From positions 887 to 64,886 of the forward strand of contig JBBCJA010000018.1 in assembly GCA_037189585.1 (NCBI GenBank): DNA of 64,000 bases, given 5' to 3'. Each line of letters opens with the position of its first letter. Position 1 is the stretch's first letter. Below, in pieces: positions 184 through 59,716 of the stretch. The position numbers were made by a program, and so were the translations under genes. The notes below the pieces were generated by a model. It was not told where the DNA came from and searched no databases. It worked only from the letters and a program-made list of their open reading frames with translations. This DNA is from Selenomonadaceae bacterium. Lineage in GTDB: Bacteria; Vulcanimicrobiota; Xenobia; Xenobiales; JADMJV01.

Positions 184-192
184 ACAACACCA

Positions 193-207: not shown

Positions 208-268
208 ATTTTAGCACCTTATTAGCGGCTCCGATAGAGGAGCGTGACCTTACCCTGCTGCTTCATCG

Positions 269-2014
269 CTAACGTTCGATCCAGGAGACGACGCGGATGC
301 GGTCTTCGATGGGGAGAAATTGTGAGAGGTCGACGGGAACATCTCCGGAAGTACCTTGAGTGGAATCAGCCGCTGCTTTACTCAACTCGGCTGTGAGCTG
401 ACTCCGAAGTTGGATCTTAAGCTCCTCGACGCCCGCGCTGTCGTAGGCCATGGCGGCTCCCCCCCATCCCGCCGCCGGAATTGATGCGTCGTACTTGAGA
501 GCGTTCATTGCCTCACCCAAGCTATCAAGATACACCTCGACATCGGCCTGGTCATCAAGAGTCTGAGTCGGCATGCTAAAAGACATAACACCCTGAACCA
601 CCGAGATATCGACCGGAAATCCTCCGTTAGTAGGCTCAAGATCGATATAGAAAGCGCGGGCCACTTTCAAATCTTGCATTGTGGATGGGTCTTCTGTGGT
701 AGTCCTCATCTCGACTGAGAGCTGTGAAGCTCCAACTTCCACCATACGCGGACCACTTACTGGCAGTAATCGCACCTCAATTCCCCCATTGGTGACCCCA
801 CCTCCCCCTGTCTCTTCCGCTATGACAGGCTCATAAAAAACATTGACGTGGTCAAGCTCGACTCCGGTGGAGGCGTGGCCGGTCAGAAGCGAGCCCACCA
901 GCGTGAGATCAGCGGCTCGTAGGCCCTCTTCGGCGTAAAATAGACCGCGTAAGTAAGAGCGTTCGGTACCGTGCCCCGAGAGAGTCACCCGTCCTCCCGA
1001 GATGACAGCCAATTCCGTCATCCCTTCCAGATTCGTCGCTCCGCCGATGGAGATGTCGCCGGTGGCCACGATGACTCCGCTCCCGCTGACACCTCGAGGC
1101 AAGCGTAGCTCTCCCTCCACGAAGAGGTGGGCATTGGAAAGGGTGAGGGGTTGGGAGAAGGTGACCACACCCTGACCGCGAGCCGAACCGGTCAGCTCCG
1201 CCTCGGACCCCGTGACGGGGAAGTGCTCGCGACCGGAGGTTCGTGGGTCGTAGTCGGTGGGACGCAAGGTCGGAAGGTCGACTTTGCTGGAACCGGCACG
1301 AATCTCTCCGCGAATTTGGACTCCGTCGGCTTTCACCACCTGTCCCGGGGTTTCCACGTCTCCTAAGATCGTACTTCCAGAGGCCAGCATCACAGCCTGA
1401 GCATCCGTTCCGTTGGCCAAAAGGTCGGCGGGTAGAAGGTCCTCCTCTCGAGTCGGAGGCGGCCAGACACCATGCGGTAGTGCGGCAATCAAAACACCGT
1501 TGCGAGTCTCCACTCGACCTCCCGAGGCGATGGCCCAGGGAAAAGGAGGCAGGCGCAAGACAGCCTCCACCCGCCGCTCCACTCCGGCCGAGCGACCCAC
1601 CCCCACCAGGTGAACGGTGGAGGAAGGAACCAAAACATCGTCAGCGCCGTGGGTGTCCTCGGTCCGATTGAGGTTGTTGGTGGAATAAGGCAGCCCCTCA
1701 CGCTGTGCCGTCCCCTGATGAAAGGTCAAAAGTCCGAGCGAATGCGAAGTTTCCAGTCGAATCCCCTCATCGACCAGGCGTGCCTCTCCAAACTCCTTGG
1801 CCTGAAGTATCTGGGAGATCGCCTGCGAAACAACCGAACGGGCCGCGTTGGAAGCGGCCAGCCCGTGCTCTTGCCGACTGGAAAGTTGGAGGTGAGTGAC
1901 GCTCAGGCTGGCTAAGGTGAAAGCCAGAACGGCTAGCACACTCACCGCTAGCAAGGCTCCCCCTAAAGAGAGCCCATGCCGATCCGACTCAGAACTCTTT
2001 CCGACGAACTTCAT
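269..2014 (-). CDS. GspK/PilX-like large minor-pseudopilin-family protein (orphan paralogue of 47210..49090)
   Basis: 581-aa ORF with a basic N-terminus, a single hydrophobic helix (GLSLGGALLAVSVLAVLAFTLASLSV) and then a PilX_N/GspK-like helix. The central block AHLFVEGELRL..GVIVATGDISIGG..AVISGGRVTLSG and the C-terminal LPIEDRIRVVSW motif align by eye with the 626-aa protein at 47210..49090. Confidence 0.6.
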   Translation of the reverse strand: MKFVGKSSESDRHGLSLGGALLAVSVLAVLAFTLASLSVTHLQLSSRQEHGLAASNAARSVVSQAISQILQAKEFGEARLVDEGIRLETSHSLGLLTFHQGTAQREGLPYSTNNLNRTEDTHGADDVLVPSSTVHLVGVGRSAGVERRVEAVLRLPPFPWAIASGGRVETRNGVLIAALPHGVWPPPTREEDLLPADLLANGTDAQAVMLASGSTILGDVETPGQVVKADGVQIRGEIRAGSSKVDLPTLRPTDYDPRTSGREHFPVTGSEAELTGSARGQGVVTFSQPLTLSNAHLFVEGELRLPRGVSGSGVIVATGDISIGGATNLEGMTELAVISGGRVTLSGHGTERSYLRGLFYAEEGLRAADLTLVGSLLTGHASTGVELDHVNVFYEPVIAEETGGGGVTNGGIEVRLLPVSGPRMVEVGASQLSVEMRTTTEDPSTMQDLKVARAFYIDLEPTNGGFPVDISVVQGVMSFSMPTQTLDDQADVEVYLDSLGEAMNALKYDASIPAAGWGGAAMAYDSAGVEELKIQLRSQLTAELSKAAADSTQGTSGDVPVDLSQFLPIEDRIRVVSWIER

Positions 2015-5665: not shown

Positions 5666-5685
5666 ATTTAGGAAGGGGAGGCGAC

Positions 5686-29797: not shown

Positions 29798-29926
29798 CGC
29801 TTCCCCCTCCATGCTAAATATGTTCTCTTGTATCACAAACCCAAGAAGCAAGATACCTATAGTAAAAAAATTAACGAAGCTTCCCTCACCAGGGAGAGCT
29901 TCCAGCGCGTCAAATCTTCTCTGACT

Positions 29927-43393: not shown

Positions 43394-43514
43394 AAGGGAA
43401 TCACGAATAGCCTTTGGGTCTCTCACCGCCTTGGCGGCTTTTCTTCTTTCTTGCTCGACCGCTGAAAGGAGCTTGAAGGCGGAACCGCCAGCCTTGGAAG
43501 CGAAGCGGCGGGGC

Positions 43515-44849
43515 ATGACTAGAGCTCGTCGGGGTATGCTGGTGGCCGGGGTGCTGTTGGCTCTTCTTTTCCTGGGCGGCTGGCTGGCTGACCGGGCTTG
43601 GAACAGGCAGGCCGAGGAGGATGTTCGACGGAGGCTGCTCGATTCGCTGAGCAACGACCAGAGAAGAAAACTGCTCAATGTATCTAAAGACGAACTTCTA
43701 CGTCAGGTCTCTGGAATCGAACAAGAGCTCCAGTGGCTTCAGTCCACTCCATGGGGAGCCGAGGTATGGGAGCAAGGTCGTCTCTTGGGACAGACACCGA
43801 TGCCCCGACCCAAGGGCGACACGACCTTAGAACTTCGCACTCCGTGGCGAAGGGCGACGGTTGGTCCTGGGGAATTGCAGGCGACCCTCTCCCCAAATCT
43901 CCTCACCCTGAGCTTACGCCTGGCTGGGCTGCTGGGGTTGGCTCTCATCGGGCTATCCTTTCGCTCTCGTCCCGAGCCTATCGAAGCCGTCGAAACCGTC
44001 GAGGCAATCGAGGAACGAAAGCCCGTTGCCGAGTCGGATCGCTTTGGAGACTTCGAGAGACTAGAGCTCTGCGGCGAAGGAAGCATGGGTACTGTCTACC
44101 GCGCCCGTTCGAGCAAAGCCGACAATCGTTCGGTCTACGCGCTGAAGATTCTCCATCCCCAATGGAGCCAGGCAGAGGAATTTCGCCAACGCTTCGAGCG
44201 AGAGTACCACATCTGCCGGCAGCTCGATAGCGACCGAGTGGTGCGGGTTCACGCCCACGGCGAAAAGGACGGTCGACTTTGGATGGTCATGGATTTCGTC
44301 GAAGGCCCTACCTTGACCGAGTGGTTGGCTTCAACCCCTCGTCAGGAGTGTGAGATTCTAGAGATAGCCGTGGCTATCTGCGACGGACTCTCCTACGCCC
44401 ACGGCCTGGGTATCGTGCATCGCGATCTTAAGCCCGACAACATCCTTGTCAGCGGCGAGAGGTCGCCCGTGATCACCGACTTTGGACTGGCTCGCAGCCG
44501 CCACTACGCTACCATCACCCAGGCCCATACCGTGCTCGGAACCCCCGCCTATATCGCCCCTGAGCAAGTCGAAGGGTCCACCATCAACGGCCAAGCCGAT
44601 CTCTATTCTCTGGGCTGCATACTTTACGAAGCACTCGCCGGGAGACCACCGTTCCAAGGCGAGGCTATGCAAGTGGTGTTAGCTCAGCTCACCAAGCAGC
44701 CAGAGCCTCTCTCCGAGTACGTCAAGGTTTCTCCGGCCTGCGAGGCTTTAGTTCATCGCCTTTTGGCCAAAGACAAGTCGAGCCGCTACGCCTCCGCCGA
44801 AGAGGTGCGCCAAGATCTGCTGGCCGCCAATAAGGGCGCGATCGCTTGA
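43515..44849 (+). CDS. Hanks-type Ser/Thr protein kinase with an N-terminal TM region
   Basis: [17 protein letters not shown] and GTPAYIAPE are present. ATG 43515 chosen (track TTG 43431). Confidence 0.85.
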
Positions 44850-46129
44850 AGTCTCGCCAGTCGTTGATCAGGCTCCGCCCTCAGTAGCTTCTCCACTAAT
44901 TCCGCGAAAGCCGGTGGACAGTCGAGGCGCACTTGGGCCAACGGCCGATACCGCTCCTGAGCTTGCGCGGCTAAAATTTGTAGCCCTTCGCACTCGGCAT
45001 ATGGTCCAGCTCCACAAGCCCAGGCGTACAAAGTACATCCCAAGGCGTAGTAGTCCGAAGCGGCCACAGCGCTGCCTTGAAGCTGCTCAGGCGCCATAAA
45101 GCCCAAAGTTCCCGAATGGCCGCTAGTCTCTCCCTGCTCCGACAGCCGCCCAGCGACCCCGAAGTCGAGAAGATGGGCCTTCCCTCTTGCATCAATGATC
45201 ACGTTGGCAGGCTTAAGATCGCGATGCACGATACCCTTGTCGTGGGCGTAATCGAGCGCCGTGGCCAGTTGCTCCGCCCAAACCTCGAGCTGTGCGAACG
45301 ACGGCCTAACGATCTCCTCACTTCTTCTTCCTTCCACCAGTTCCGTGACGAGCCAGACAAAATCTGTGCTCTCGCCCCAGTCCAAAAGATGAACGATGTG
45401 CGGGTGGGAGAGAGTTCTCCAGACCTCCACTTCGTCGCGGAAGCGGTGACGCGCCTCTGGGTCATCGGTCCAATCGGAGCGCAATACCTTCATCGCCAGT
45501 GGCTCTCCCCCATCCAAGCGGCGCACACGGTAGACGCGGCTCATACCTCCCCGCCCAAGCTCTCCCTTGATTCTATAGCCGAACAGCTCCACTCCCGGGT
45601 GCAACTCTTTTCGAGCTAGCGACTCGCTCAGACGTCGCTGTCGGCGTAGAACCGGGCGAACCCTAAAGAACCCAAACCCGGCAAGGATGAGCACAACGGA
45701 AAGGAGCGGAGCGAAGTCGCGCGCCGCGTAGCACAGAGGCGACAGAACCCACCACCTGGAACGCATCTCCACCATCCGTTCACCCCGAGCGAGCTCCTCA
45801 GGGGAAAGATGAACCGTCTCTTCATGGTATCCTGGCAAGGAGAGAATTAAGGTAAAGTCCGCCCTCTCCTCAAGGCCGATAGGGAGAGGGCCTGGAGTGT
45901 ACCCAATGGGGTTTCTGTGGAATCCGCTCACGCTCATGGAGTAGGTATCGACTCTAGCGCCGCTCGGGCGGCTCCGGAGATAGATGGCCCCGAGAGCTTC
46001 TCTTTTGGGCCAAGAAAGCCAAATTTGCCCCAAGAGCAGAATGCAACTTATCGCGGCTATCCCATAAGTTTGACGACGCAACTTCTCCACTCCGGCTAGT
46101 GCAGCATTCGGCCAACACCTCCCTGCCAT
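44786..46129 (-). CDS. Ser/Thr protein kinase with an N-terminal PEGA-like domain and TM helix
   Basis: [17 protein letters not shown] and [10 protein letters not shown] are present. The PEGA-like block is SRPSGARVD...GYTPGPLPI...[13 protein letters not shown]. Confidence 0.85.
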
Positions 46130-46197: not shown

Positions 46198-46602
46198 GTG
46201 AGGAAAAGGAGCAAATATGGATTCTCCTTAGCGGAGTTGATGCTCGCTTTTGTCGTGCTTTCCGTTCTCTCGGTCGTGCTTATCGGAGTCGTTCCCTCCA
46301 CGATTATCGGTCTCAAGGGGGCAAGCCAAAGGGCCAATGCGGCACTGCTGGCTCAAACCCAACTCGAGGAGCTTCGCCGCACCGGATTTAGCTCCGTCAC
46401 CCCGACTCTCGAACCGTATCCCACAGCCGTGATGGAGCGGACCGACTATACCTACCGAGTCGAGGTGGAAGAGGCCCGACTGAGCAGCGGAGAGGCCATG
46501 AGTCCTGATGTCGCCAAGCTAGCCAGCGTGGTGGTTGAGTGGCGGAGTAAGAGCGGACCCCAGACTTATACCGCCAGCGCGGTGATGTTCAAGCGGATAT
46601 GA
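46198..46602 (+). CDS. Minor pseudopilin, GspI-like size (prepilin-type N-terminus)
   Basis: Leader MRKRSKYG followed by [23 protein letters not shown] (Gly-1, Glu+5). Confidence 0.8.
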
Positions 46603-47213
46603 GCCGTCAAAGTGGAGTAAGCTTAGTGGAGGTCATGATCGCCGGCGGCCTCCTTTTACTCGTCACCGCGATGATGGTCGCTCTGCTCCTACCCTCCTTT
46701 TCTCTCTTCCGCAAACAGGGAGGGCAGTCGGATGCCTATCGCGTGTGTCTGCAAACCATCGAAAAATTTCGCCTGGAGATGCTCAACACTCAACTGGAAT
46801 GCCTTACTATCACCCCGGATCTGCAAGCCATCGCCTGGCAGGAGACTCTGGCGGATCCTCCTTTCTCCGTGACCAGTGGAGAGCCGCTCATGAATGACAT
46901 CTTCACAGTTTTGCACTACCGTGATCGACGAGTGCTAATAACGCGCAGCGAACCGAGTGGGACCGGAACCTCCACTATCCCCTCGCGACTGGGCCTTGAT
47001 GAGGTGATGGAATTGCGTGCTCGTCAAACGAGGACCCTGGCCCGCGATATCACCGCTTTTGAAGTTCGCGACAACGACCCGGACTCGCCCCTCACAACGC
47101 CTCCCATTCGTATGTCTTTGACCTGCACTATCGATACCAAGGGAAGAGCCAGCAACGACGAAGAGTCCTTTAAGATGAACGTAACCGTCACGCCGAGGAG
47201 CCAACGCTGGTGA
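46599..47213 (+). CDS. Minor pseudopilin, GspJ-like size
   Basis: Leader MSRQSG followed by VSLVEVMIAGGLLLLVTAMMVALLL (Glu+5). A 4-nt start/stop overlap occurs on both sides. Confidence 0.75.
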   Translation: MSRQSGVSLVEVMIAGGLLLLVTAMMVALLLPSFSLFRKQGGQSDAYRVCLQTIEKFRLEMLNTQLECLTITPDLQAIAWQETLADPPFSVTSGEPLMNDIFTVLHYRDRRVLITRSEPSGTGTSTIPSRLGLDEVMELRARQTRTLARDITAFEVRDNDPDSPLTTPPIRMSLTCTIDTKGRASNDEESFKMNVTVTPRSQRW

Positions 47214-49090
47214 GAATTTCAATTCGTGGAGCTGTCTCCCTACTCTCCGTACTCTGCCTGGTGGGGATCGTGATGATTCTCGCTTCGGCCATGGTCGGAG
47301 TGTTCTCGATGAATCTGAACATGACCCAAAAGTCGTTCAACGGCTCCATCGCCGAATCCGAAGCCGAAGCTGGGATAGCCGAAGCGCTTTACCGTATCAC
47401 CGACGCCAATGACAACAATATCGACAACAGTCAACAGCCGCCCGCGGTAAAGTACGGCCGCTCCAGCGAGACGATTCGAGGCACCATCACCCCGAAACTC
47501 AGTCCAGAGGAAGCTTACCACGTCGTAACTTTTGCCGAGGGGACCGGATTCCCACATTCCACCAATAACACCTATCTCGATCGCGATACCGGCTCTTTGG
47601 GACGGGCCGTGCCTGACGGGATGTTTCACATCGTCTCCACCGGCTACTGCCGTGGTCAATATCGCACCATCGAGGCCTTGATCTCCAAACCTCCCTTTCC
47701 TTTTGGTCTGGCCACCTCCGGAAAGTTGGTGTCGCCCGATCCTTTCGTCGTCAAAGGGGTCTCCTCGATATCCGACCTACTCGACGACAAGGAAGATCGC
47801 CCTGGACATATTCTTTGTAACTCCCCAGAAGGCGTAACGATCGGACAGAGCGATCCGCCTCGACCAACCTACATCAGTGGTTTCGTGAAATCGGTCGGAC
47901 CGATCTCCATCGAGCAGCCCGCCCAAGTTTTAGGAGGGTTGCGCCCAGGAGCCGATGCCTCCACTCTTGCCACTATCGATGTCAAGAAGTTCAGGAATGA
48001 AGGTCAGCCCGGAGTTGTGACGATCAACGATCCGAACTTCGTCAGAGATCAGACCATGGACATCATGTACTTTTACTCTGGCAACCTGCTCACCTACGAG
48101 CGTTCGGTCAAGCTCAACAAGGCCTTTCTTTATGTCGAGGGCGACCTCTTGATCAAGGGTCCGGTCACTGGTGAAGGCCTGATCGTGGTGGACGGAAACG
48201 TCACCTTCGGCTCAGGCACAGCCCTAGATGGCGCCAACAAGATGGCGGTACTCGCCTCCGGCGACATCACGATTCGGGGGGCCAACAACTATTTCACCGG
48301 CCTCATTTACTGCGGAGGAGACTTTACAGCCTCCAACGTGACGGTGGTAGGGAATACCGTGGTCAACTCCCCCGATCCTGAGAAAGGTAAAGCGAACCTG
48401 GAGAATGTGACGATGATCAGCAACACCGAAACAGCGGACATGACGATCACCATCACTTCAAGTAGTCACGCCGAGGGGCAGGATAACGCCCCCGATGCTG
48501 TCATTCCGCTCGGTATCACCTCAGACACCTTCGGGTTACCCACGGACTGGGATTACTCCAATGGTGGCGGTGGTGGGCTTGGTGGCTGGATCGACCCAAA
48601 AAATCCCCAAAGCATGTACGTGGAAATTTTGATGGATCTCTGGCAGGCCTCTCTTGACCCCTCTTCCCAATTCCCCGTCCTGGGAATGAAACCGTCTGGA
48701 AAAGGTGTCGACGGTATCTGGGATCAAGCGACCGCTCTCTACGAGCTCGCGAGCCAAAATCGAAGTGTCAGTGACCAGATCAACCAGTTGGAATCGAGCA
48801 AAGAATCCGCGCAGGGAAACCATGAACTCTTGGCCCAAATTGAAGCTCAAATTCAAGCACTCGAAGCATCACAAGCCGAGGCCAAGATCGTCTTTCAAAC
48901 CGCGGCGGCGGCTCTCGTCAATTCTATTTACAACCACATGAAAGCCCACGCCGACGGCGATGGAACGTACGACGACGGCACTGTGGACATGGACATCGTC
49001 ATCAAGCAGAGATTCAACCTCAACGAGTATCTTCCCGAGAGCGAACGGGTCAAGATCGCCTATTGGCGGGTTCATCACCGCCGCTTCTAG
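47210..49090 (+). CDS. GspK/PilX-like large minor-pseudopilin-family protein (626 aa)
   Basis: Hydrophobic N-terminal helix, then SIAESEAEAGIAEALYRI (PilX_N/GspK-like). The central repetitive beta-rich block is paralogous to 269..2014. A C-terminal coiled coil is followed by the LPESERVKIAYW motif. Confidence 0.65.
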   Translation: MRISIRGAVSLLSVLCLVGIVMILASAMVGVFSMNLNMTQKSFNGSIAESEAEAGIAEALYRITDANDNNIDNSQQPPAVKYGRSSETIRGTITPKLSPEEAYHVVTFAEGTGFPHSTNNTYLDRDTGSLGRAVPDGMFHIVSTGYCRGQYRTIEALISKPPFPFGLATSGKLVSPDPFVVKGVSSISDLLDDKEDRPGHILCNSPEGVTIGQSDPPRPTYISGFVKSVGPISIEQPAQVLGGLRPGADASTLATIDVKKFRNEGQPGVVTINDPNFVRDQTMDIMYFYSGNLLTYERSVKLNKAFLYVEGDLLIKGPVTGEGLIVVDGNVTFGSGTALDGANKMAVLASGDITIRGANNYFTGLIYCGGDFTASNVTVVGNTVVNSPDPEKGKANLENVTMISNTETADMTITITSSSHAEGQDNAPDAVIPLGITSDTFGLPTDWDYSNGGGGGLGGWIDPKNPQSMYVEILMDLWQASLDPSSQFPVLGMKPSGKGVDGIWDQATALYELASQNRSVSDQINQLESSKESAQGNHELLAQIEAQIQALEASQAEAKIVFQTAAAALVNSIYNHMKAHADGDGTYDDGTVDMDIVIKQRFNLNEYLPESERVKIAYWRVHHRRF

Positions 49091-49312: not shown

Positions 49313-50584
49313 CTAGTTACCAGAGGGCTCCGCTGCGAGCTTCTCAGGTCGGTCCACCCGCCCCATCATGAGTACCGCGCCGCTGCCGCTATGTCGTAGG
49401 AGAAAGGCGAAAGGCCGCTCGAAGGTCAAAACCTTTGGTGGGGGTTTGACAGCCGACCCTCTCCGGCTCACGACCACGGCTGTGGCAGCGGCGGCTTCCG
49501 TACCCTCTTCATCCACTTTCACGTATGTCTTGTGATAGATGTTGAGCTCAAGTCGCTCGGGACTATCCAGGATCAGCATGCGGGTCAGATCGGGGTTCTT
49601 CACGACCTGCGCTAGACCGATTTCTCGCCAGGCCTCGGTCAGCTCGAAGGTGGGCACCTCGAATTCGAAGCGTGGTAGTCTCAGGGTGACCTCCTCCGCG
49701 GATTCGCTCGGCTCGAGGTAGAAAGAGGAGAGCGCCTTGTCGGGCTCTATTCCCTGGTCCGGCAATAAAAAGACCATCTCGAAGCCCTCCTGATAGGGCA
49801 AGGTCACCCCGGTCGCCCCCCGCAGGCGGAAGCTGGCGACCCCTGGGCGTGTCATCATCGGGGTTTGTAGTGTCTCTCCCGAGGAAGTCGTGAAGGTTCC
49901 CGGTCGAGTGTGTTCTTTCTCGAACTTACTCCGCCAGCTCCCCTTGAAGTGCAGGGCGGAGACCAGCACGCTGACGGTATCGCGACCGAGCGTGGGTAGA
50001 AAATCTTTGATCAGACCGGCGGTACGCTCGGCCACCCAGTCGTTGATGACTTGTGTCGCCCTCTTCGGGTCAGTGGAGAAAGGTAGAACTTGAACAGGAT
50101 CGGTCAGTAACGGCTTGATCTTGACGGAGTAACTCTCGACAAGCTTGACCGACTGATCCAGATAAATTTTCTGGGCCAAAGCCAGAGATTCGGTCTCGTC
50201 CAAACCGCCGGCTAGCTTCGTCAGCTCCCCGAGGACCTCTCCTTTCAGCCCGGTGGCCGCGGCGATCTCCTCTTTGGTTCTCCCTTCAGCTCCCTCTTGC
50301 ATCAGACCTAACAGAAGGTAAGAGCCCAGCGGACTGACAGCCAGGTTTCCGGGCTTCTTCCCGGCCACCGCTTCGTACAAGTTCTTGTTGAAGTTAGCCA
50401 ACCCAACACTAACCTCTTTAGAGATAACGAGCTCGGGGACTGCGGAGGGTGGAGGTGCCACCAGCTTCTGAACGGGTGATGGAGAGGCTGTCTGCTGTGG
50501 CCCCGGTGGGAGCGAGGAAGGTTGGCAAGCGGAAATAAGGAGGCCTCCGAAGATGCCCAAAGCCAAGAGTTTGAGTGAGTTCAT
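49313..50584 (-). CDS. Serpin (serine protease inhibitor) lipoprotein
   Basis: Reactive-centre-loop hinge EEGTEAAAATAVVV, serpin blocks FKGSWRSKF and FERPFAFLL, and lipobox LLISAC. Confidence 0.85.
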   Translation of the reverse strand: MNSLKLLALGIFGGLLISACQPSSLPPGPQQTASPSPVQKLVAPPPSAVPELVISKEVSVGLANFNKNLYEAVAGKKPGNLAVSPLGSYLLLGLMQEGAEGRTKEEIAAATGLKGEVLGELTKLAGGLDETESLALAQKIYLDQSVKLVESYSVKIKPLLTDPVQVLPFSTDPKRATQVINDWVAERTAGLIKDFLPTLGRDTVSVLVSALHFKGSWRSKFEKEHTRPGTFTTSSGETLQTPMMTRPGVASFRLRGATGVTLPYQEGFEMVFLLPDQGIEPDKALSSFYLEPSESAEEVTLRLPRFEFEVPTFELTEAWREIGLAQVVKNPDLTRMLILDSPERLELNIYHKTYVKVDEEGTEAAAATAVVVSRRGSAVKPPPKVLTFERPFAFLLRHSGSGAVLMMGRVDRPEKLAAEPSGN

Positions 50585-50641: not shown

Positions 50642-51040
50642 TCACTCGAAGTAGGTGTTGAAAACGGTATAGGATTTGAGTAGCTTCTCCGCCATCGCGT
50701 TACGCCTAGTTGCATCCTTCTCGCTAGCCATGGTGTTGACCATCTCCATGTACGGGACCAGCCAGTTGTGCAGCTGATCGTGCGCCGGACCCGTCATGGT
50801 GCAGTTGGAGACAAGTTTTTGTAGATTGGACTGAAGCTCCCGATGGAGCAGTTGTTTCTGGGAGTTTGAGGCGGAAGGGTATTCGCGAAGGTCTTTTTCC
50901 ATAGCACGCAGGTAGACCATCATCTTAGGCTCCACTTTCCAACGCTCACCGGCATTGAGATCGAGCTTCGTTTCTGAATCAGCCCAGGTGGGAGCTGAGG
51001 AAAGTAAGAGTAGGGCTAGAACGAGGAGTAGTTTGGGCAT
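50642..51040 (-). CDS. Secreted hypothetical helical protein
   Basis: 132-aa ORF with a signal peptide (LLLLSSAPTWA). Confidence 0.6.
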   Translation of the reverse strand: MPKLLLVLALLLLSSAPTWADSETKLDLNAGERWKVEPKMMVYLRAMEKDLREYPSASNSQKQLLHRELQSNLQKLVSNCTMTGPAHDQLHNWLVPYMEMVNTMASEKDATRRNAMAEKLLKSYTVFNTYFE

Positions 51041-52005: not shown

Positions 52006-54606
52006 CTAGAACCGGTCAGGCACTTCTAGTCGAACTCTCAAAAATGAAGATCGAAGTGACGTGGTGGGGACATCGACAAAGAGAAATTTCTCTCCACCAG
52101 GAGCCGCGTCCCAAAGCCTACTATCCGTGGGTGAGGCGTGAGGGAGCTGGAGTAGCCGCGTGGGGCTCTCGGAATAATCCGGCTTGAGGACCCAAAGGGC
52201 TCCATCACGTTCAAACAAGAGCCTACCGTCCTGTAAAAAGACAGGGTGCCGACCCGGCCCGACACGCCGAAGTTCTCCTTCCGGCAGTCCGCGAAGGTAG
52301 ACCTCTTCCAAGCCGCTTTCGTTAGAAACAAAAGCCAGGATCTTCTCATCCGTGGAAACGTAAGGATGGCGTTCATCAAAAGGCGAGCTAACAACGGCTC
52401 GAGGCTCCTCGCCCGGTTTGACGACGTACAGGTCATGGTCACCGGCCTCGGTCTCTTGTTCAAACCAGATCCCCGAAGGCGTCCAACATTTCACGAACTG
52501 ACGCCGGGAACTCGTGGTGATTCGAGTCATCCGACCAGGTTTATCGAGGTCGAGAACGTAGATGTTGAAAGGTCCCTCTTGATCGGAGCTCACCGCCATA
52601 GTCGTGCCCTCGGGGGCGAAGGCAAAGCTTACGGTATTACCGCGATGAGTCACTCGGCGATCGAGGCGAGTCGAAAGCTCTCGGAACCATAGGGCGCGTA
52701 CATCGTCGTCAAAGCGGCGATAGCAAAGCACTTTGCCGTTCGGCGACAGGCGTGGCTCGACTCCATCAAACAACTCATCGGAGAGTGTCTCGCCCTGAGC
52801 GTCAATCCAAAGAACATGTCCCTCTCCCGTCTCCTCCGGCTCAAGATAGGCAAGCGTCCCCTGAGCCGCGCTGAAACCCGCCGCTCCTTTCTCGACGTCA
52901 CACCAGATTCGGGGAAGAATGACCCGATCGTTTTGCAGCAGCGCACCATCCCGAACCGCAAAGGTTCCTGTATCGGTAGGCCAACCCGAGTAGGCCTGGG
53001 TGGCGACCACACTGCGCTGACCGGTGGAGAGTTCGAGTCGCTCCACTCGACCAGAGGCATAGGTTCCACCGGAGCGCCGAGAAAAGTACAGCCCGTCTTC
53101 ATCGGCTCTGGGCCAACCCAGGACCGAATCTCCCGACTTGGGGTCGGGTGTCAGGAGCTTCTGAACCTTTCCTCCTCCTCCGCTAGCGACGCTGCTAATC
53201 CCACCCGAGGTTGTGGCAAAAACGATCCTCTCATCAACTGTCCAAGTGCCCCCCAGAAACTGATCGATGCGCAGGTCGTCGACGACTCTAGTCACCGGCC
53301 CCCCCTCCAAGGAGACCCAGACCAGACCCTTGCGGCCCAAAAATCCGAGACGGTCTCCCTGAGGAGAAAAGAAGGGGAAAGCTCCGTTCTCACTTCCGAC
53401 GATCAATCGACCCTCGGCCTGGTCGAACGGTTGAAAGAAAAGTTGGCGCCCCTTCTCGGTGAGAACGGGAACGACCACAGCCCGGCCATCCGGACGAAGT
53501 GCCGGTAGCGGATGTTCCACAGCCAAACTGATCCCTGGAGGGAGTGAAACGGAAAGATAAAGCGGTGTGGGAGAAGGTGAGAAAAGTGCCCTGCTTGGCG
53601 CGCTCTCCTGCCCTAGCAGAAAACCTACGCCGACGGCAATTCCAACTAGACCGAGTATGGCGCTGGTCAACCCGAGACGGAAGGGAGAGCTCCCTTTCAC
53701 CTCGGGGCGTGGGTGAGCGCTCGTCTGTCTGAGAGAGCTAGAGCTCGGCTGCTTGAGCGAGACGACTTCAGCCCCGGAGGTCGACACGAGCCTTTCTCCA
53801 ACCTCAGCCATGCTTTGCGGACGATCCTCCGGAGCTTTCCGTAGGCAATCTTTCAGTAAAGCCAAGAGTGAGCCCTGGTCGGGCACCAGGCTCCAGTCCG
53901 GCTCGTTGGTGAGTATGGCGTTGAGAGTCGCCGCGAGATTGTCCTTGGGGAAGGCCAATCGTCCCGTCACGGCCTCGTACAGACAACAACCCAAAGACCA
54001 GATCTCGGTCCGAACATCAGCGGACACCGCCCTGATCTGTTCCGGAGCAAGATAGGGAGCGGTCCCAACCAGGGTGCCTTCTCGCGTCGAGAACTCCGCC
54101 GCGCCGGTCAAGGTACCTTGCAGCTCCTTAGCCAACCCGAAGTCGAGTAGCTTCACCCGGTCGCGCGCCCCAATCATGATATTTCCAGGCTTGAGATCGC
54201 GATGAAGAATCTGACTTTGATGAGCTGTCTCCAGCGCCTCGGCCGCCTGGGCGAAGATCCGGCGAGCGCGGTCGAGGGGAATGGGCCCGGACTCAAGAAG
54301 CTTCTCCAAGGTCTGTCCCTCGACAAGCTCAAGAATCAGACATAGGGTACCCTGGTCGTCCTCCAGGTCGTAGATAGCGCCTATCCCGGGGTGATTGACC
54401 GCCGCGAGCAGCCGAGCCTCACGTTGAAAACGCGCGACTTTCTCCGGCTCGCTTGTCATCGACTCGGGCAAGACCTTGACAGCGACATGGCGCTCGAGGC
54501 GGGTGTCGATGGCTCGATAAACGGCCCCCATTCCACCTTCACCGATCTTCCCAAGGATGCGATACGGTCCGATCTCTTTGTCGGAAGCTAGACTCAACGA
54601 CGCCAA
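52006..54606 (-). CDS. Ser/Thr protein kinase fused to a TolB-like (PD40/WD40-like) beta-propeller region
   Basis: HRDLKPGNIMI, DFGLAK and GTAPYLAPEQ are present. A TM helix is followed by about 500 aa of propeller-like repeats. Confidence 0.85.
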   Translation of the reverse strand: MASLSLASDKEIGPYRILGKIGEGGMGAVYRAIDTRLERHVAVKVLPESMTSEPEKVARFQREARLLAAVNHPGIGAIYDLEDDQGTLCLILELVEGQTLEKLLESGPIPLDRARRIFAQAAEALETAHQSQILHRDLKPGNIMIGARDRVKLLDFGLAKELQGTLTGAAEFSTREGTLVGTAPYLAPEQIRAVSADVRTEIWSLGCCLYEAVTGRLAFPKDNLAATLNAILTNEPDWSLVPDQGSLLALLKDCLRKAPEDRPQSMAEVGERLVSTSGAEVVSLKQPSSSSLRQTSAHPRPEVKGSSPFRLGLTSAILGLVGIAVGVGFLLGQESAPSRALFSPSPTPLYLSVSLPPGISLAVEHPLPALRPDGRAVVVPVLTEKGRQLFFQPFDQAEGRLIVGSENGAFPFFSPQGDRLGFLGRKGLVWVSLEGGPVTRVVDDLRIDQFLGGTWTVDERIVFATTSGGISSVASGGGGKVQKLLTPDPKSGDSVLGWPRADEDGLYFSRRSGGTYASGRVERLELSTGQRSVVATQAYSGWPTDTGTFAVRDGALLQNDRVILPRIWCDVEKGAAGFSAAQGTLAYLEPEETGEGHVLWIDAQGETLSDELFDGVEPRLSPNGKVLCYRRFDDDVRALWFRELSTRLDRRVTHRGNTVSFAFAPEGTTMAVSSDQEGPFNIYVLDLDKPGRMTRITTSSRRQFVKCWTPSGIWFEQETEAGDHDLYVVKPGEEPRAVVSSPFDERHPYVSTDEKILAFVSNESGLEEVYLRGLPEGELRRVGPGRHPVFLQDGRLLFERDGALWVLKPDYSESPTRLLQLPHASPTDSRLWDAAPGGEKFLFVDVPTTSLRSSFLRVRLEVPDRF

Positions 54607-54784
54607 GTCCCTATAGCGACCTTGCTCTCCACAATCCCCATCCAGAGAAATTGCTCGAGGAGTGAGGTTGTTCCTTGCCAGGAGGAGGCGCCCTTTCAGG
54701 TCACTTTATCATACTACGGGAACTGAGTATGGCGGGTCAGGAACGAAGAACATCAAGCCTGAGCCTGACGGAGACTAGGCGATA

Positions 54785-54818
54785 AGTAAGGAGCCCGACA
54801 TTTGCCGGGCTCCTTACT
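54785..54818 (-). terminator. 13-bp hairpin downstream of the pseudopilin operon (no clear U-tract)
   Basis: agtaaggagcccg (54785-54797) pairs with cgggctccttact (54806-54818). It lies 15 nt past the stop at 54833. Confidence 0.45.
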
Positions 54819-54832
54819 CTCGAGCGAGGTCG

Positions 54833-55585
54833 CTAATGGAAGGCGGCCAAACGGAAGGTGATGCTGTAGGTGTGCGGTTTGCCGCGCTCGTTCTGCAGCA
54901 GCTTGATCTCGGCTTCCAGCATTCGGGTGTTGTCCGAGGCGGCTCCCTTTCTTGGATTAACCGTGGTCAAGGATTCCGCCCCGCCGGAACCGCCCGCTCG
55001 ACGGACGAACTGGACACGAAACCCGCCGAACTCATCGGTGGCAAGAGTTCCTTCAGGACCGGCGTTAGGGACGCTCACATTGGGGAGCAGGATGTCGCGC
55101 ATCATCACTCTTTGTTTGGCGGGCTCCACCATCGAAGGAAGGGTGGACGAGACACCGGGCAAGAGGTCTTTCTTCACGATCTCTTTCTCCCAGCGAACCA
55201 GGGATCCGGTCAAGGCATCGTCACCACGACTGACGGTGTAGAGCACATGCTTGTCCCATTGGGGCGCGCCCCACCGATTGATCAGAGGCTTTCCCCGAAG
55301 TTCCGGGTCGTAAGCCCGATTGGAGACCAAGGACATACCCGGAGCTTCGGTCGATCTTTCCGCGTTGGGAAAGACCTCTATGCTGGCAAGCGCCGACTCG
55401 TTCACATCGCGCTTGATCCACTCCACGGCCTTCTCCGTCTCTCCACTAACCAGATAGCTAGAGGCGGTCGCCCTCTGCCCACCCCAGATCAGGTTGGAGA
55501 TCGACCAGAGGAGGACGCCGGCCAGGACCGCCAGGGCGAAGTAAACGACCAGCTCCATGATTGTCATACCGCGTTGGTTTCTCAT
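54833..55585 (-). CDS. Minor pseudopilin, GspJ-like size
   Basis: Leader MRNQRG followed by MTIMELVVYFALAVLAGVLL (Glu+5). ATG 55585 lies 5 nt after GGAGG. Confidence 0.8.
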   Translation of the reverse strand: MRNQRGMTIMELVVYFALAVLAGVLLWSISNLIWGGQRATASSYLVSGETEKAVEWIKRDVNESALASIEVFPNAERSTEAPGMSLVSNRAYDPELRGKPLINRWGAPQWDKHVLYTVSRGDDALTGSLVRWEKEIVKKDLLPGVSSTLPSMVEPAKQRVMMRDILLPNVSVPNAGPEGTLATDEFGGFRVQFVRRAGGSGGAESLTTVNPRKGAASDNTRMLEAEIKLLQNERGKPHTYSITFRLAAFH

Positions 55586-55587
55586 CA

Positions 55588-56031
55588 CTACCTCCATACC
55601 GGAACTCGAACTTCGAGCTTCTTGTTGTCGCTGGTCAGGGTCTGATCGGTCTGGGTGTCTCCCACCCCTTCACGCCAAGTGATGGTCACGGTCACGACAT
55701 CGGAGTTACCCGTCGCCGTTCCCACAAAGCTCCCGTTCTCGTAACTAACCGTCTTCTCGAAAGCCATCTCTTGCTGGCGGTTTCCTACCCAAACAGTGAC
55801 CGGAGCTTCGTCTTTTAACGACCATCGCTGGGGTGCGGGGTTACCGTAGGTATGAGCCTCGATGTCGTCCATCATCCCCTGGGCCATCATGATGGCGACA
55901 CTTCGATTGCGACTGGCCACCGCGACCTGGTTGCTGTTGGAGAAGATGGTCAGGAAGGCCACCAGGACGACCAGAGAGACTGCCAGAGAGACGATGATCT
56001 CCATCAGAGAGAATCCACGTTGACGTTTCAT
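55588..56031 (-). CDS. Minor pseudopilin, GspI-like size
   Basis: Leader MKRQRG followed by FSLMEIIVSLAVSLVVLVAF (Glu+5). The ATG overlaps the upstream stop (ATGA). Confidence 0.8.
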   Translation of the reverse strand: MKRQRGFSLMEIIVSLAVSLVVLVAFLTIFSNSNQVAVASRNRSVAIMMAQGMMDDIEAHTYGNPAPQRWSLKDEAPVTVWVGNRQQEMAFEKTVSYENGSFVGTATGNSDVVTVTITWREGVGDTQTDQTLTSDNKKLEVRVPVWR

Positions 56032-58970
56032 AGCTCCCAACCTCCCGCGGTCATATGGTGGGTCACCGGCGGAGGTCCGACCTGAACCGCCAGTCCGCTG
56101 TCGTGGGCCGCTCCGTAGGCCTCGAAAGCCGCCCGCTCAAGCGCCGTCGCGCCTGGCACTTCCTTGGGCAAGTAGAGGGACGCCTGGTTGAAGTAGGGAT
56201 AGTAGAGGAAGTTACCCACGTTGATGCTGCCGTTGCGAGCCAGTAGGGTTCCGATAGTGAGATCCGCCTGGCTGCTGATGCTCTCCTCAGCCACCAACAT
56301 TCCGCTGACCTGACGAGCCTCCGCTCCGATTTTGATATTCCGCCCGTGGATCAACAGGCCAGCGTACTCCTTGAGATACTTATCGGCATCAAGGACGTTG
56401 GTGTTGGCCAGAAGGTCGCCCAGCAAGTTACGTCCGTGGTTACCTAGCCTTGTTTGGAATCCGCTAACGAAATCCTGATAAAAGTCATCCACCGCGTCCT
56501 CATCGCGCTTGACTTCATCCACGATGGCGTTGGCTACATCCATAATAGGTCCGAACCCACCCGGGGCCAGAATTCGAGCCGCCTCTTCGGTCAACTTGGA
56601 GACACACTGTTTGAGAGCCCAGGCTACCGTGTGCTGGCTGGTCATCCTCTCCAGAAAACCGCGGACTTCGTTCTCCAGGTTCTCGGGGTCCAGCTCGCTC
56701 GACGTCAGCAAGGTTCGAGCCGCTCCGGCCGACCGCAAGGCCGCCCCTAAGTCGAGGTTGTGCGCCATCGGTACGACTCCGTTGCCGAAAGGCCACCAGT
56801 CGCTCTGGGGGTAAAGGTTCTCACCCAGGGTGGCGTTGAGTCCGGCCGTGTAGGCGAAAGTCTTGGCGCGGAAGGCGAAGACCCAGAGGTTCTCCTTGGG
56901 AGATGGGGCCGGAGCGATGGCCACTACCGGCGGAAAGGGTATCGTCACCAGCTGGAAAGTGGTGGCATAGCGGGCGTAATACGGGTTGCGCAGGTGGAAC
57001 GGTCCAGCCAATTTCGAGAGTAGTGGAGCCGCCTGCTCGACTAGATTGCGCACTGTGTTGGCGCCCTCGGCGGTACCGGGAAGGTCCAGCGCAGCGATCA
57101 GGTCGGCGATGGTGTGGGCCGCGTAGGTTCCGTGAGGAATGGTGACGTCGCCGTCGACCAACAGAGCCGAGCTGATGGGATGGATCTCCCCGGGTTCGCC
57201 GGCCACCATAATGGAGCCGAATTGCGGGCTTCCTTGGCACTCGAAGTCGCCTCTGACGATCAACGTCGCGCCCTCTTCGAAGAAAACCCTGCCGCTAGGG
57301 GCGAAGGCGTCCGAGATGGAGACCGTCGCCACTGGAGAAGCCAGTTTAAGATTCCCGTTGACGATCATCACCGTCCCCCGCTGCAGCCAGAGGTCTCCCT
57401 GAATCTCCATACTGCCGTCGTAGCGCAGCGTTCGGGAGGCGGGCACGGTCCAGGTGCTGCGAGAGACAAACTTATCTCCCGTCCACTCGAAGCCGGGCAC
57501 CTCGTCGGCCGGACCGTAGTGAACCACACGGACATCGGTGCTGACGGCAGCTGCGATATCCTTGAGATCTCCGCCTCTGCAGATAGAGGTGACGAGTTCC
57601 GCCATCTTCCCCATCGTCTTAGAGTAGTTCCATCCCCATTGGCCGTCGCGGCCTTCCGGATCTTCCTCTCGGGTCTCGGGAAGAGGAGAAGAGCCCGACC
57701 CGATCCTACCTTCGGCGATACCGGCGGCTTCTTCAGCCGAATCTTCCAGAAAATCCTCGATCTGCTCGAAGGCGCGCCGGGCGTCGGCCAGTTCGTCGTT
57801 GGCATCGTCTAAGGCGTCCCGGTTATGATCGTTGGGATTGGCGGTATAGGCGGCTTGAGCCGCATCCTTGGCGGCCTGGGCCTCCTCAAGCTTTCGCCGA
57901 GCTTCTTCCAACAGGCGAGCCGCGTCCTCTTGCTCTCTGGCTATCTCGCTCAGGCGGCCCAGGTCAGGATCGTGTTGGCGAGAAAATCCGAGGTCGGGCT
58001 GAAACGGAACGTGCAGCCAGACTTCCCAAACCAGCCCGGGAACGACCATACTGGCACCCGGTATGATGGGAGTGGGAAACTTCCAGGCCTGGCGCAGGCT
58101 GAGCACGCTCTCTGGATTGAAGTCGCCACCAAACATAATGTTGAGCATGTCGGCGAGACCCATCCGCTCACTGATGAGGGAAGTCTTGTTGCCGCTGGCC
58201 GTGCTCCCGGCAAGCGTGGATCCGGCCGCGGCCAAACCTTCTAGTAGCTCGTTCTCGTATGCCGGCAGGGGAAGATTACCGTTGAAACCCAAACCGGCTC
58301 CGGCTTCGATGGTAATGCTACCGGCCCGGGAGTGAGCTTCTCCGTAGGCGAGATCCTCGATGGTGATATCGCCCTGAGCGCCTAGCAGCGCCGGCACTCC
58401 CGAGTAAGCCTCGCTAGAGGCGGTCTCCTCATCGTGCTCGGGGTTCTGCCAGCCCGCGACCTCGCCCAACTTGATATTCCCCTTTGGAGCGTAGGCGGCG
58501 TAGCCTGGAATCTCGCTTTCCACCATCCGGTAGCCGCCCTTACGAACACCGGCCTTCAGGCCGCCAAGTCCGGTCGCCGTAACCTCTAAGTAGCGATGAG
58601 CGTGAGCCAGATTATCCGTCTTGAGATCAGGTAGTCCACTCCACTTTCCGCCGGTCTGTTCGAACAGCTTCTTGGCATATTGGGGTTCGATCTTGTTGGC
58701 GTTGTCGTCACCGGTGACATCCTCGATCTGGGTTCCTAATCCCAACCCCCAGGGCACACTTTGACCCAACAGTCTTTCTCGTACCGCGAAGTTACGGGAT
58801 TCTCGAAATCTCAACTCGGCCTCGGAATGAAGCAACGCCCCTCGCGATGTGGTCTGTTGATGGTGCAAGGCGATGACGACGACCATGAAAACGGCGATGA
58901 TACCCAGGACCATCGCCAATGTACTGCCCCTGCGTCGTCGCCGCTGGCGACTTAGTGAATTGGTGGACAT
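56028..58970 (-). CDS. Giant GspK/PilX-like minor-pseudopilin-family protein (about 980 aa)
   Basis: RRRRRGSTLAMVLGIIAVFMVVVIAL is followed by a PilX_N-like helix. An acidic coiled coil is present (EQEDAARLLEEARRKLEEAQAAKDAAQ...). Its beta-rich blocks (VMIVNGNLKLAS, ATLIVRGDFECQG) resemble those of the other two K-like proteins. Confidence 0.6.
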   Translation of the reverse strand: MSTNSLSRQRRRRRGSTLAMVLGIIAVFMVVVIALHHQQTTSRGALLHSEAELRFRESRNFAVRERLLGQSVPWGLGLGTQIEDVTGDDNANKIEPQYAKKLFEQTGGKWSGLPDLKTDNLAHAHRYLEVTATGLGGLKAGVRKGGYRMVESEIPGYAAYAPKGNIKLGEVAGWQNPEHDEETASSEAYSGVPALLGAQGDITIEDLAYGEAHSRAGSITIEAGAGLGFNGNLPLPAYENELLEGLAAAGSTLAGSTASGNKTSLISERMGLADMLNIMFGGDFNPESVLSLRQAWKFPTPIIPGASMVVPGLVWEVWLHVPFQPDLGFSRQHDPDLGRLSEIAREQEDAARLLEEARRKLEEAQAAKDAAQAAYTANPNDHNRDALDDANDELADARRAFEQIEDFLEDSAEEAAGIAEGRIGSGSSPLPETREEDPEGRDGQWGWNYSKTMGKMAELVTSICRGGDLKDIAAAVSTDVRVVHYGPADEVPGFEWTGDKFVSRSTWTVPASRTLRYDGSMEIQGDLWLQRGTVMIVNGNLKLASPVATVSISDAFAPSGRVFFEEGATLIVRGDFECQGSPQFGSIMVAGEPGEIHPISSALLVDGDVTIPHGTYAAHTIADLIAALDLPGTAEGANTVRNLVEQAAPLLSKLAGPFHLRNPYYARYATTFQLVTIPFPPVVAIAPAPSPKENLWVFAFRAKTFAYTAGLNATLGENLYPQSDWWPFGNGVVPMAHNLDLGAALRSAGAARTLLTSSELDPENLENEVRGFLERMTSQHTVAWALKQCVSKLTEEAARILAPGGFGPIMDVANAIVDEVKRDEDAVDDFYQDFVSGFQTRLGNHGRNLLGDLLANTNVLDADKYLKEYAGLLIHGRNIKIGAEARQVSGMLVAEESISSQADLTIGTLLARNGSINVGNFLYYPYFNQASLYLPKEVPGATALERAAFEAYGAAHDSGLAVQVGPPPVTHHMTAGGWEL

Positions 58971-59347
58971 AGCGGCTATTCTCATAACTTGAGCCTCCTT
59001 CGATCTGATCCGTCCAGGCCAGACAGAGGACCACTCTAATCTCTTTTCGTGGTCCCCAATCCCGACCCACGTTAACAGCGTAAAACTGTGCCAGATCTAG
59101 CTCCGTGAAATCACCCACCTTGTATGGGGAAGCACATCGTGTTCCGGGCCACAAATGGGTGGGATGGACCAGGTGGGATAGGAAATAGGGCAGAACTTGA
59201 AAAAGCTAAATACGAAGCGATGAAGGGCTCCGCCTTGGGGATAGGGATGGGATGCTCTGGTATAAACACCTTTCCCGACCCCTCTAGTACGAAATTCCTA
59301 AAGGCGATCAAGAGTCCCACGCGACGAAGTAAAACTTGGAGGATACC

Positions 59348-59716
59348 ATGAAACCCATTGAATGCGATTTCTGCGCGCTCGCTCCCTCCGAGGTGACGGT
59401 AACTCGGAAGGACCGTCAAGGAGCCGTCCGCGCCTGCCTTCGTCTCTGTCGTCGCTGTGTCGATCTGCAACAATACATCACGCTCGTGCAAGACAAGGTC
59501 TTAAACGAGAAAGCGCCGTGCCTGGTCTGCGGACGCCCCGCTTCTGTCGAGACCGTGAGCCGGGGTCCGAATGACAAACTTCTCGGCCGCGCCATGCTGT
59601 GCTCTTCCTGCACCAACCCTCCTCCCCCCAACCTTCCGGCGATGCTCCGCATTAGCAACCTCTGGACCCCTGGGGTCCTAGAGCTACCCCAACCGGCTCA
59701 ACGCGTCAGGCCATAA
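59348..59716 (+). CDS. Cys-rich (zinc-ribbon-like) hypothetical protein
   Basis: CDFC...CRRC and CLVC...CSSC pairs are present. ATG 59348 lies 5 nt after GGAGG. Confidence 0.5.
   Translation: MKPIECDFCALAPSEVTVTRKDRQGAVRACLRLCRRCVDLQQYITLVQDKVLNEKAPCLVCGRPASVETVSRGPNDKLLGRAMLCSSCTNPPPPNLPAMLRISNLWTPGVLELPQPAQRVRP

Follow-up and report, generated by a model that had tools for sequence, protein, structure and literature searches.

Gene organization of the locus

We analysed a stretch of 64,000 nucleotides (hereafter the window) from a Vulcanimicrobiota genome deposited as Selenomonadaceae bacterium (assembly GCA_037189585.1, contig JBBCJA010000018.1, positions 887 to 64,886). On its minus strand three consecutive genes encode a giant K-like protein and two smaller minor pseudopilins of I-like and J-like type (Table 1). 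A first-pass annotation, made from the letters of the sequence, had described these genes as a tip-like module that is accompanied by kinase genes. The gene positions given there agree with the list of open reading frames (ORFs), and the K-I-J order is also that of 13 of 13 related loci. The loci that were fetched with a K-I-J module are designated L001-L013, L003 and L004 being one arrangement.

Table 1. Coordinates of the K-I-J locus and of related genes in the window
Feature	Position	Strand	Basis
Giant K-like (ComZ/GspK/PilX-type) minor-pilin-like protein, 985 aa, without Glu5	56028..58985	(-)	ORF list, junction reading
I-like minor pseudopilin, 147 aa, prepilin motif RG/FSLMEI	55588..56031	(-)	N_methyl 29.8 bits, orthologues in 13/13 loci
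J-like pseudopilin, 250 aa, prepilin-like motif RG/MTIMEL	54833..55585	(-)	Glu5 invariant in 11 orthologues
Terminator-like GC-rich hairpin, probable 3' end of the K-I-J unit	54780..54822	(-)	Fold energy, shuffles, relatives
Conserved DNA block upstream of the K-like gene, candidate promoter/operator	59060..59150	(-)	Alignment of upstream regions of the window, L013 and L012
Hanks Ser/Thr kinase with transmembrane segment and PD40 beta-propeller region (kinase-PD40), neighbour outside the operon	52006..54606	(-)	Pkinase E 9e-53, PD40 47 bits
Hanks kinase with conserved N-terminal domain, divergent from operon 1 across 68 nt	44786..46129	(-)	Pkinase E 2.5e-49
Second Hanks kinase, convergent with 44786..46129 and overlapping its 3' end	43431..44849	(+)	Pkinase E 8e-52
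Operon 1: I-like (134 aa), J-like (204 aa) and K-like (626 aa) minor pseudopilins	46198..49090	(+)	
Third K-like protein, 581 aa, paralogue of the 626-aa protein	269..2014	(-)	BLASTP E 4e-29

The three genes are closely packed. An ATGA at 56031..56028 is common to the stop codon of the K-like gene and the start codon of the I-like gene and is preceded by GGGAGG, while the J start (55585), which has GGAGG just upstream, lies behind the I stop with a gap of 2 nt; both the overlap and the gap had been read correctly before. A Shine-Dalgarno motif is thus found ahead of each of the three starts, the one of the K-like gene being AGGAGG. ATG 58985 appears to be the better start for this gene, because AGGAGG lies 8 nt upstream of it and because the orthologues have the N-terminal 'MKI/MRI' but not the second Met. 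The large size of the protein, previously put at about 980 aa, is therefore confirmed, and its length becomes 985 aa. As listed, the I-like ORF (56040..55588) has 150 aa and the J-like ORF (55597..54833) has 254 aa; counted from the first ATG (56031) and from ATG 55585 they are 147 and 250 aa long, respectively. The gene order had been called the reverse of the I-J-K order found in operon 1, but K-I-J is a cyclic permutation of it.

The DNA block upstream of the K-like gene was also inspected for a sigma-54 promoter. This candidate was dropped, as the spacing of TGGCAC..TACG deviates by one and L013 does not keep the GG. Further upstream, a divergent small Cys-rich ORF with CxxC motifs is present at 59336..59716 (+), in a stretch that also aligns with L013. 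An Rfam scan of the window returned two tRNAs only and nothing near the K-I-J module.

Conservation of the module and its putative transcription unit

The K-I-J order is kept in all 13 related loci, with identities ranging from 34 to 81%. For all three genes the dN/dS ratio, calculated against the relatives with 81% (L013) and 75% (L012) identity, is 0.05-0.20, which indicates purifying selection on K, I and J. The first-pass annotation had considered that its reading would fail if the modules were pseudogenes. We reject this idea on the basis of intact ORFs, the conserved operon and the low dN/dS ratio. Close homologues of the 985-aa protein (n=33, 940-1013 aa) are all unannotated and all metagenomic, and its four genome matches are all metagenome-assembled genomes of Vulcanimicrobiota (Eremiobacterota). 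A profile search against 1.84 billion cluster representatives recovered 195 clusters of the family, with E below 1e-30 in 140 cases. Among the 149 representatives listed, about 100 are near full length.

A GC-rich hairpin with a 16-bp core begins 10 nt past the J stop. Its fold energy is −35.9 kcal/mol (z −5.75), and none of 200 shuffled sequences was as stable. In 6 of 8 relatives (L012, L013, L005, L009, L003 and L011) a similar GC-rich hairpin directly follows the J stop, and several of these hairpins are trailed by U-runs. The consensus terminator and promoter scan of the locus was uninformative, and the terminator part of it missed the hairpin because the U-tract is weak. Since the hairpin is kept in relatives, K, I and J look like a self-contained operon that forms an autonomous transcription unit.

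The 985-aa K-like protein

Members of the 985-aa family begin with basic residues, a Gly and about 20 hydrophobic residues without Glu5, followed by 'ALHHQQ..R..L.R.EAELRFRE'. In the window protein the leader comprises residues 1-20 and ends with RRRRRG. The absence of Glu5 from the large protein matches GspK and PilX. The protein is also co-encoded with I- and J-type minor pilins, in K-I-J order in 13 loci and in I-J-K order in L003. The C-terminus of the family is conserved as well ('AVQVGPPPVT...T.GGW').

The AlphaFold model, built from a 28-sequence alignment (pLDDT 75, pTM 0.72), starts with an N-terminal helix of 52 residues (22-73) that is followed by a beta-rich region (84-235). Residues 336-428 are an acidic coiled coil (26 D+E versus 12 K+R, pI 4.3), which is modelled as an antiparallel hairpin of helices 340-382 and 386-425. 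A run of short strands at about 483-625 probably forms a beta-solenoid. The remaining parts of the model are a helical bundle of low confidence (746-860), a second beta domain (877-938) and two short C-terminal strands (966-969 and 977-980). The modelled fold resembles the tip pilin ComZ, with 238 residues aligned; solenoids of ice-binding proteins align over fewer residues (181-196). The comparison with ComZ is relevant because ComZ has been described as a GspK-like pilin domain that is interrupted by a solenoid similar to those of ice-binding proteins. More specifically, the solenoid of ComZ precedes the last strand of the pilin domain, and the protein has been proposed to cap the pilus together with PilA2 (PMC6561018). 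Judged by its modelled fold, the 985-aa protein is best called a ComZ-like analogue of K-type subunits, homology to the K type being unproven.

In complexes of an I-J dimer and a K subunit, the latter needs a final beta-strand that is supplied either in cis, as in GspK and CpaL/TadG, or in trans, as by PilY1/PilC and, by prediction, MshQ (PMC13533445). By analogy with GspK, ComZ and CpaL, the C-terminus of the 985-aa protein probably folds back and closes, in cis, a putative pilin-like sheet of the N-terminal region. Alternatively, the protein could be a non-pilin tip adhesin or cargo, comparable to PilY1/PilC, MshQ or the tapirins, that is signal-anchored or donates its C-terminal strand in trans to a genuine K-type pilin from another locus, so that only I and J would be pilins. 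We consider this quite unlikely. The lack of Glu5 and of a GspK or PilX match in the sequence would agree with it, as would the fact that the operon holds only two clear pilins, and a highly conserved C-terminus is also a feature of the strand-donating PilY1 and MshQ. On the other hand, the conserved basic residues with Gly, the hydrophobic stretch and the long amphipathic helix are typical of GspK and PilX, and the match to ComZ exceeds those to the ice-binding-protein solenoids. In addition, the N-terminus aligns weakly with the 626-aa protein of operon 1, which matches GspK, and the paralogous operon of L003 also consists of exactly I, J and a large type. No PilC/PilY1 propeller domain was detected with Pfam in the 985-aa protein, which has a pilin-like N-terminal helix.

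The I-like and J-like proteins

The 147-aa protein matches Pfam N_methyl (PF07963) with 29.8 bits against a cut-off of 21.2, and the canonical motif G/FSLMEI is found across its family. Its scores stay below the curated cut-offs of XpsI (NF047828, 27.6 versus 150 bits), PilV (TIGR02523, 23.2 versus 52.2) and GspI (TIGR01707, 17.7 versus 44.35), and these matches cover mainly the N-terminal helix. The protein fits the I type by size and position. In the 250-aa protein N_methyl reaches 17 bits, below the same cut-off, and 6 of its 11 orthologues match N_methyl. Four of the 11 orthologues weakly match the pseudopilin HpsC, and a PDB profile search with the J-like protein found pilin N-termini only. 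It is therefore reasonable to use 'I-like' and 'J-like' as labels given by size, motif and position and not as demonstrated family membership.

Verru_Chthon cassette models (TIGR02596-TIGR02600) gave no match for the K-I-J module. Membership in this cassette type was rejected, since only the 134-aa I-like protein of operon 1 reaches the protein B model, with 28 bits against a cut-off of 51.4.

Links to a filament machine in related genomes

In L003/L004, the K-I-J module stands back to back with an operon that encodes a kinase, a 269-aa protein, T2SSF, T2SSF, T2SSE, I, J and a large K. This second pilin set, in I-J-K order, is paralogous to the module (I, E 3e-24; J, E 1e-12; K, E 7e-38). In two further loci a single protein combining Pkinase, MshEN and T2SSE (PilB/GspE-type) is encoded divergently from K-I-J (L010:3169-6249 (-) and L007:155-2776 (-)), and L010 also contains a PEGA-domain kinase. 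The Pkinase-T2SSE fusion family comprises at least 66 clusters, of which the few with a source name are labelled Vulcanimicrobiota; no paper on such fusions was found in the literature searched. In L001 the genes for a kinase, FHA-T2SSF, a kinase, GAF-T2SSF, I and J follow one another, the two platform proteins carrying an N-terminal FHA domain (L001:2080-3558 (+)) and an N-terminal GAF domain (L001:5004-6620 (+)).

Two other arrangements were noticed in the relatives. A string on one strand of L016 (57-5081 (-)) encodes a 581-type K-like protein (564 aa), an I-like protein (117 aa), a 167-aa protein, a kinase (402 aa) and T2SSF; it is another K-first arrangement, with the kinase and the platform gene directly after it. 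L014 encodes a 754-aa pseudopilin-propeller fusion (3720-5984 (-)) with a prepilin motif, a GspH domain and PD40, which adjoins a conserved kinase pair described below.

A putative priming or tip complex

Taken together, our results make it likely that the K-I-J genes, as an operon of their own, encode a complex of minor pilins that primes or tips the filament of a type IV machine, either a pilus or a type II secretion-like system. The tip-like reading of the first-pass annotation is in this respect supported by the prepilin motifs of I and J, the GspK/PilX-style N-terminus of the K-like protein, its ComZ-like modelled fold and the T2SSF-T2SSF-T2SSE-I-J-K operon of L003. By analogy with GspI-J-K, PilV-W-X and ComZ-PilA2, the I-like and J-like prepilins would be cleaved at Gly-1 and pair via their N-terminal helices. 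As the top subunit, the 985-aa protein would join them and be held by its N-terminal helix, which is of the GspK/PilX type and lacks Glu5. It could then nucleate filament assembly on the platform protein and the ATPase and remain at the tip, where the beta-solenoid, the acidic coiled-coil hairpin and the further domains may act as a cap or an adhesin.

Several observations weigh against a priming or tip complex. Foldseek comparison of the 985-aa model with the PDB gave nothing at E<=0.001. At the sequence level, Pfam, NCBIfam and PDB sequence searches revealed no membership of the GspK, PilX, ComZ or HpsA families; more specifically, coiled-coil noise was the only signal of the 985-aa protein in these databases, the GspK model (NF037980) did not match it, and no Pfam domain was found in any of eight diverse members of its family. 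Neither the 250-aa protein nor its orthologues match GspJ or PilW beyond the prepilin motif. Finally, the window carries no gene for an ATPase, a platform protein, a prepilin peptidase, a secretin or a major pilin.

The kind of filament is a separate question. The module may prime a short periplasmic pseudopilus for the secretion of protein or polysaccharide (type II or Hps-like) and not a surface pilus, and we regard this as a minor but real possibility. The best, though weak, family matches of the I-like protein are XpsI and GspI, and the weak HpsC matches among the J orthologues point in the same direction. So does the gene order: in the hps locus the large gene also comes first, hpsA being followed by the pseudopilin genes hpsB-D. 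The homology to HpsA reported for cyanobacterial PilX-EPS would agree with such a role too. Against it, although not decisively, one would more readily imagine a protein of about 100 kDa that carries a long coiled-coil hairpin at an exposed tip, and the associated ATPases carry an MshEN domain. This domain is typical of MshE-type pilus assembly ATPases. Moreover, the cultured relative makes type IV pili: Vulcanimicrobium alpinus, the one cultured member of the phylum, is a diderm that moves by them (PMC9758169).

The choice of filament that a type IV machine builds, and of the targets to which the filament sticks, depends on the priming complex of minor pilins. If the priming or tip complex is read correctly, the K-I-J operon extends the design of ComZ and cyanobacterial PilX-HpsA, a GspK-like pilin with a beta-solenoid, to a barely studied phylum. 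New in this case are the family of roughly 200 unannotated clusters, the addition of a long acidic coiled-coil hairpin and further domains, and the position of the large gene at the head of the operon. C-terminal strand addition (PMC13533445) offers a role for the conserved C-terminus of the 985-aa protein that can be tested.

Kinase genes beside the pilin modules

Downstream of the J-like gene, at a distance of 226 nt and on the same strand, lies the kinase-PD40 gene. The first-pass annotation had given this distance and the 68 nt between the other kinase gene and operon 1 correctly. Residues 15-265 of kinase-PD40 match Pkinase with 179.7 bits (cut-off 31.7), the VAVK, HRD (HRDLKPGN), DFG and APE motifs are readable, and a hydrophobic stretch at about 310-335 is predicted from the sequence to be a transmembrane segment. 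The protein had been named kinase-TolB-like. The kinase part and a PD40 region are present, but TolB identity of the C-terminal part was rejected, as TIGR02800 gave 59.9 bits against a cut-off of 343. By its domain matches this protein is a PD40-propeller sensor kinase with a generic propeller and not with TolB.

Recurrent kinase adjacency had been taken as a hint of phospho-regulation or sensing coupled to the modules, with the reservation that it should be conserved in relatives. For kinase-PD40 it is not conserved in the closest ones, there being no homologue of it after J in L013 (81% identity), L012 (75%) and L005 (73%). In L013, unrelated genes are found downstream of J. L012 is syntenic on both sides and has two small opposite-strand ORFs where the kinase gene would be, and in L005 no kinase gene lies within 9 kb downstream of the module. 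The module flanks of L002, L008, L009 and L011 contain no kinase gene either. Between the two pilin modules, the window also encodes a serpin (49313..50584 (-), Pfam E 6e-71) and a 132-aa protein (50642..51040 (-)). The serpin gene, the 132-aa gene and the kinase-PD40 gene are all missing from the otherwise syntenic L012, and thus this stretch is variable. Co-transcription of kinase-PD40 with the operon was judged unlikely, as the hairpin intervenes.

It could be argued that kinase-PD40 is a dedicated sensor or regulator of K-I-J, its periplasmic propeller sensing a cue and its kinase domain phosphorylating components that deploy the tip. The short distance on the same strand would fit this, as would the K(581-type)-I-J-kinase-T2SSF string of L016 and the pseudopilin-PD40 fusion of L014. 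A further supporting point is the distribution of kinase genes over the 341 kb sampled: 19 of 19 are no more than 1.4 kb away from a type IV filament gene, and no kinase gene occurs in the 100 kb lying more than 5 kb from filament genes (binomial p 0.0013, uncorrected for phylogeny, i.e. shared ancestry, or for the choice of loci). However, the seven relatives named above have no homologue beside the module, the strong post-J hairpin keeps its position in relatives without a kinase there, and the propeller of kinase-PD40 has no detectable similarity to the pseudopilin-PD40 protein of L014. Because of the absent homologues and the hairpin a dedicated partnership is unlikely, and we hold it to be improbable overall. 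Most likely, kinase-PD40 is a separately transcribed, lineage-specific neighbour of K-I-J.

The situation at operon 1 is different from that of kinase-PD40. The convergent kinase pair (43431..46129) accompanies the I-J-K(626 aa) operon in all five loci compared (the window, L012, L014, L015 and L016), even where the K protein has only 43% identity. In the 44786..46129 kinase the N-terminal domain is also retained in L012, L014, L015 and L016 (E 6e-54 to 8e-21). The adjacency proposed by the first-pass annotation therefore fails for kinase-PD40 and stands beside operon 1. The same division applies to the co-occurrence of kinases and pseudopilins in relatives, where kinase-led ATPase/platform operons and fusions stand back to back with K-I-J but the specific adjacency of kinase-PD40 is lacking. 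It is plausible that kinases are coupled to the filament machinery and to operon 1, whereas the proximity of the downstream kinase-PD40 looks incidental. Any control by kinases in this phylum probably targets the ATPase and the platform proteins, and not the K-I-J operon directly. Another possible reader of Ser/Thr phosphorylation is encoded in the window at 18274..19590 (+); it combines two FHA domains with an adenylate/guanylate cyclase domain.

On a wider scale, one may imagine that filament machines of Vulcanimicrobiota are gated by Hanks kinases through kinase-ATPase and FHA/GAF-platform fusions. Membrane sensor kinases with PEGA-like or PD40 outer domains, including the three of the window, would then select which of the 985-, 626- and 581-aa tip modules is deployed, and the coiled-coil tip would be a lineage-specific adhesin or effector-delivery head. 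This scheme is speculative and on the whole doubtful. The kinase pair, the kinase-led operons and the Pkinase-T2SSE, FHA-T2SSF and GAF-T2SSF fusions are a concrete lead towards a control of type IV filaments by eukaryote-like kinases. Among our observations this lead is of greater interest than the module itself, although most of it lies outside this window.

Other K-like proteins and further genes of the window

The first-pass annotation had assumed three K-like paralogues and had recommended a joint phylogeny. The 626-aa and 581-aa proteins are indeed true paralogues. The 985-aa protein is not detectably related to them: BLASTP gave E 0.06-1.6 only, and the HMM (hidden Markov model) of the 985-aa family did not find either protein at E<=10. 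A weak match was obtained with hhalign between the 985-aa family and the 626-aa protein (47% probability, E 2e-4), covering the N-terminal ~130 residues. Sequence paralogy of all three is not supported by these comparisons beyond the weak N-terminal match, and a joint phylogeny would not be meaningful, as the 985-aa protein cannot be aligned beyond it.

The 626-aa protein scores 17.6 bits with the GspK model (cut-off 130). Its structural model (pLDDT 87) shows an N-terminal helix, a small sheet, a solenoid, a coiled-coil hairpin (501-533 and 538-579) and C-terminal strands. By its modelled fold the 626-aa protein of operon 1 is a bona fide K-type subunit, and the models indicate that the 985-aa and 626-aa proteins are built from the same kinds of parts. 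The long acidic coiled coil that the first-pass annotation had noticed in the 985-aa protein is thus present, but the claim that the paralogues lack such an element does not hold for the 626-aa protein. With at least three K-type proteins, the genome may use different tips for specialised filaments, as cyanobacteria do.

No I or J gene and no pilin-like ORF was found downstream of the 581-aa K-like gene, in window positions 1..268. This segment (-) contains a toxin-like fragment, possibly of the MqsR type, that appears split across two frames. Elsewhere in the window, a 774-aa protein (27527..29851 (-)) has a DUF3352-like N-terminus and two internal GspG/DUF1559-like pilin segments ('GQLTAC.SN.KN.GTALEMYSTDWSGAYP'); such a duplicated pseudopilin-like arrangement is unusual. 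At 62584..63423 (-) a protein is encoded whose N-terminal half is a Gly/Met-rich low-complexity region and whose C-terminal part is a CHAP amidase domain.

Comparison with known systems

A structural parallel is the ComZ-PilA2 tip of the competence pilus of Thermus thermophilus (PDB 6QVI; PMC6561018). ComZ is a large pilin-like protein with an N-terminal hydrophobic helix and GspK-like topology that is dominated by a beta-solenoid of the ice-binding-protein type; the model of the 985-aa protein suggests a similar build, and in both cases the gene lies beside those of small minor pilins. Unlike ComZ, with which it shares no detectable sequence similarity, the 985-aa protein comes from a different phylum, is nearly twice as long and adds an acidic coiled-coil hairpin of about 85 residues, a helical bundle and a second beta domain.

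GspK-GspI-GspJ at the pseudopilus tip of type II secretion systems (PDB 3CI0) and PilX-PilV-PilW of type IVa pili provide the parallel in composition: two small Glu5 prepilins are co-encoded with a larger third subunit without Glu5, and the genes are translationally coupled. In contrast to GspI-J-K, the order here is K-I-J and all scores of the module are far below the curated family cut-offs. The insert of GspK is alpha-helical, whereas a solenoid is modelled here, and the K-I-J operon has no GspH- or FimU-like gene.

A further parallel comes from cyanobacteria. A preprint (10.64898/2026.02.12.705559) reports that all cyanobacterial PilX proteins carry the same solenoid insert, that HpsA is a homologue of one expanded subfamily (PilX-EPS), and that each of two alternative priming sets builds a filament of its own kind. 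PilX-EPS/HpsA with the pseudopilins HpsB-D (PMC4284469), and PilX-Com, resemble our module in the solenoid, as modelled here, before the C-terminal strand, in the great expansion of some members by extra domains and in the presence of several alternative priming sets per genome; the J orthologues add their weak similarity to HpsC. The 985-aa protein differs in giving no match to the HpsA family, glycosyltransferase genes are not adjacent to the module, and a coiled-coil hairpin has been described neither for HpsA nor for PilX.

CpaL/TadG, MshQ and PilY1/PilC (PMC13533445) are likewise large tip proteins with a conserved extreme C-terminus, where short strands are predicted in the 985-aa protein. 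The propeller of PilY1 and the LamG-type domain of MshQ were not detected in it.

For the kinases, two systems can be compared. The Tad-like Kil system of Myxococcus has an FHA-fused ATPase (PMC8460266), and Pseudomonas type VI secretion is regulated by the Ser/Thr kinase PpkA and the FHA protein Fha1, according to work cited in PMC8460266. Relatives of the genome studied here are similar in having kinases inside ATPase/platform operons as well as FHA/GAF-platform and kinase-ATPase fusions. The difference is one of location: the FHA, GAF and kinase fusions lie in the relatives and not in this window.

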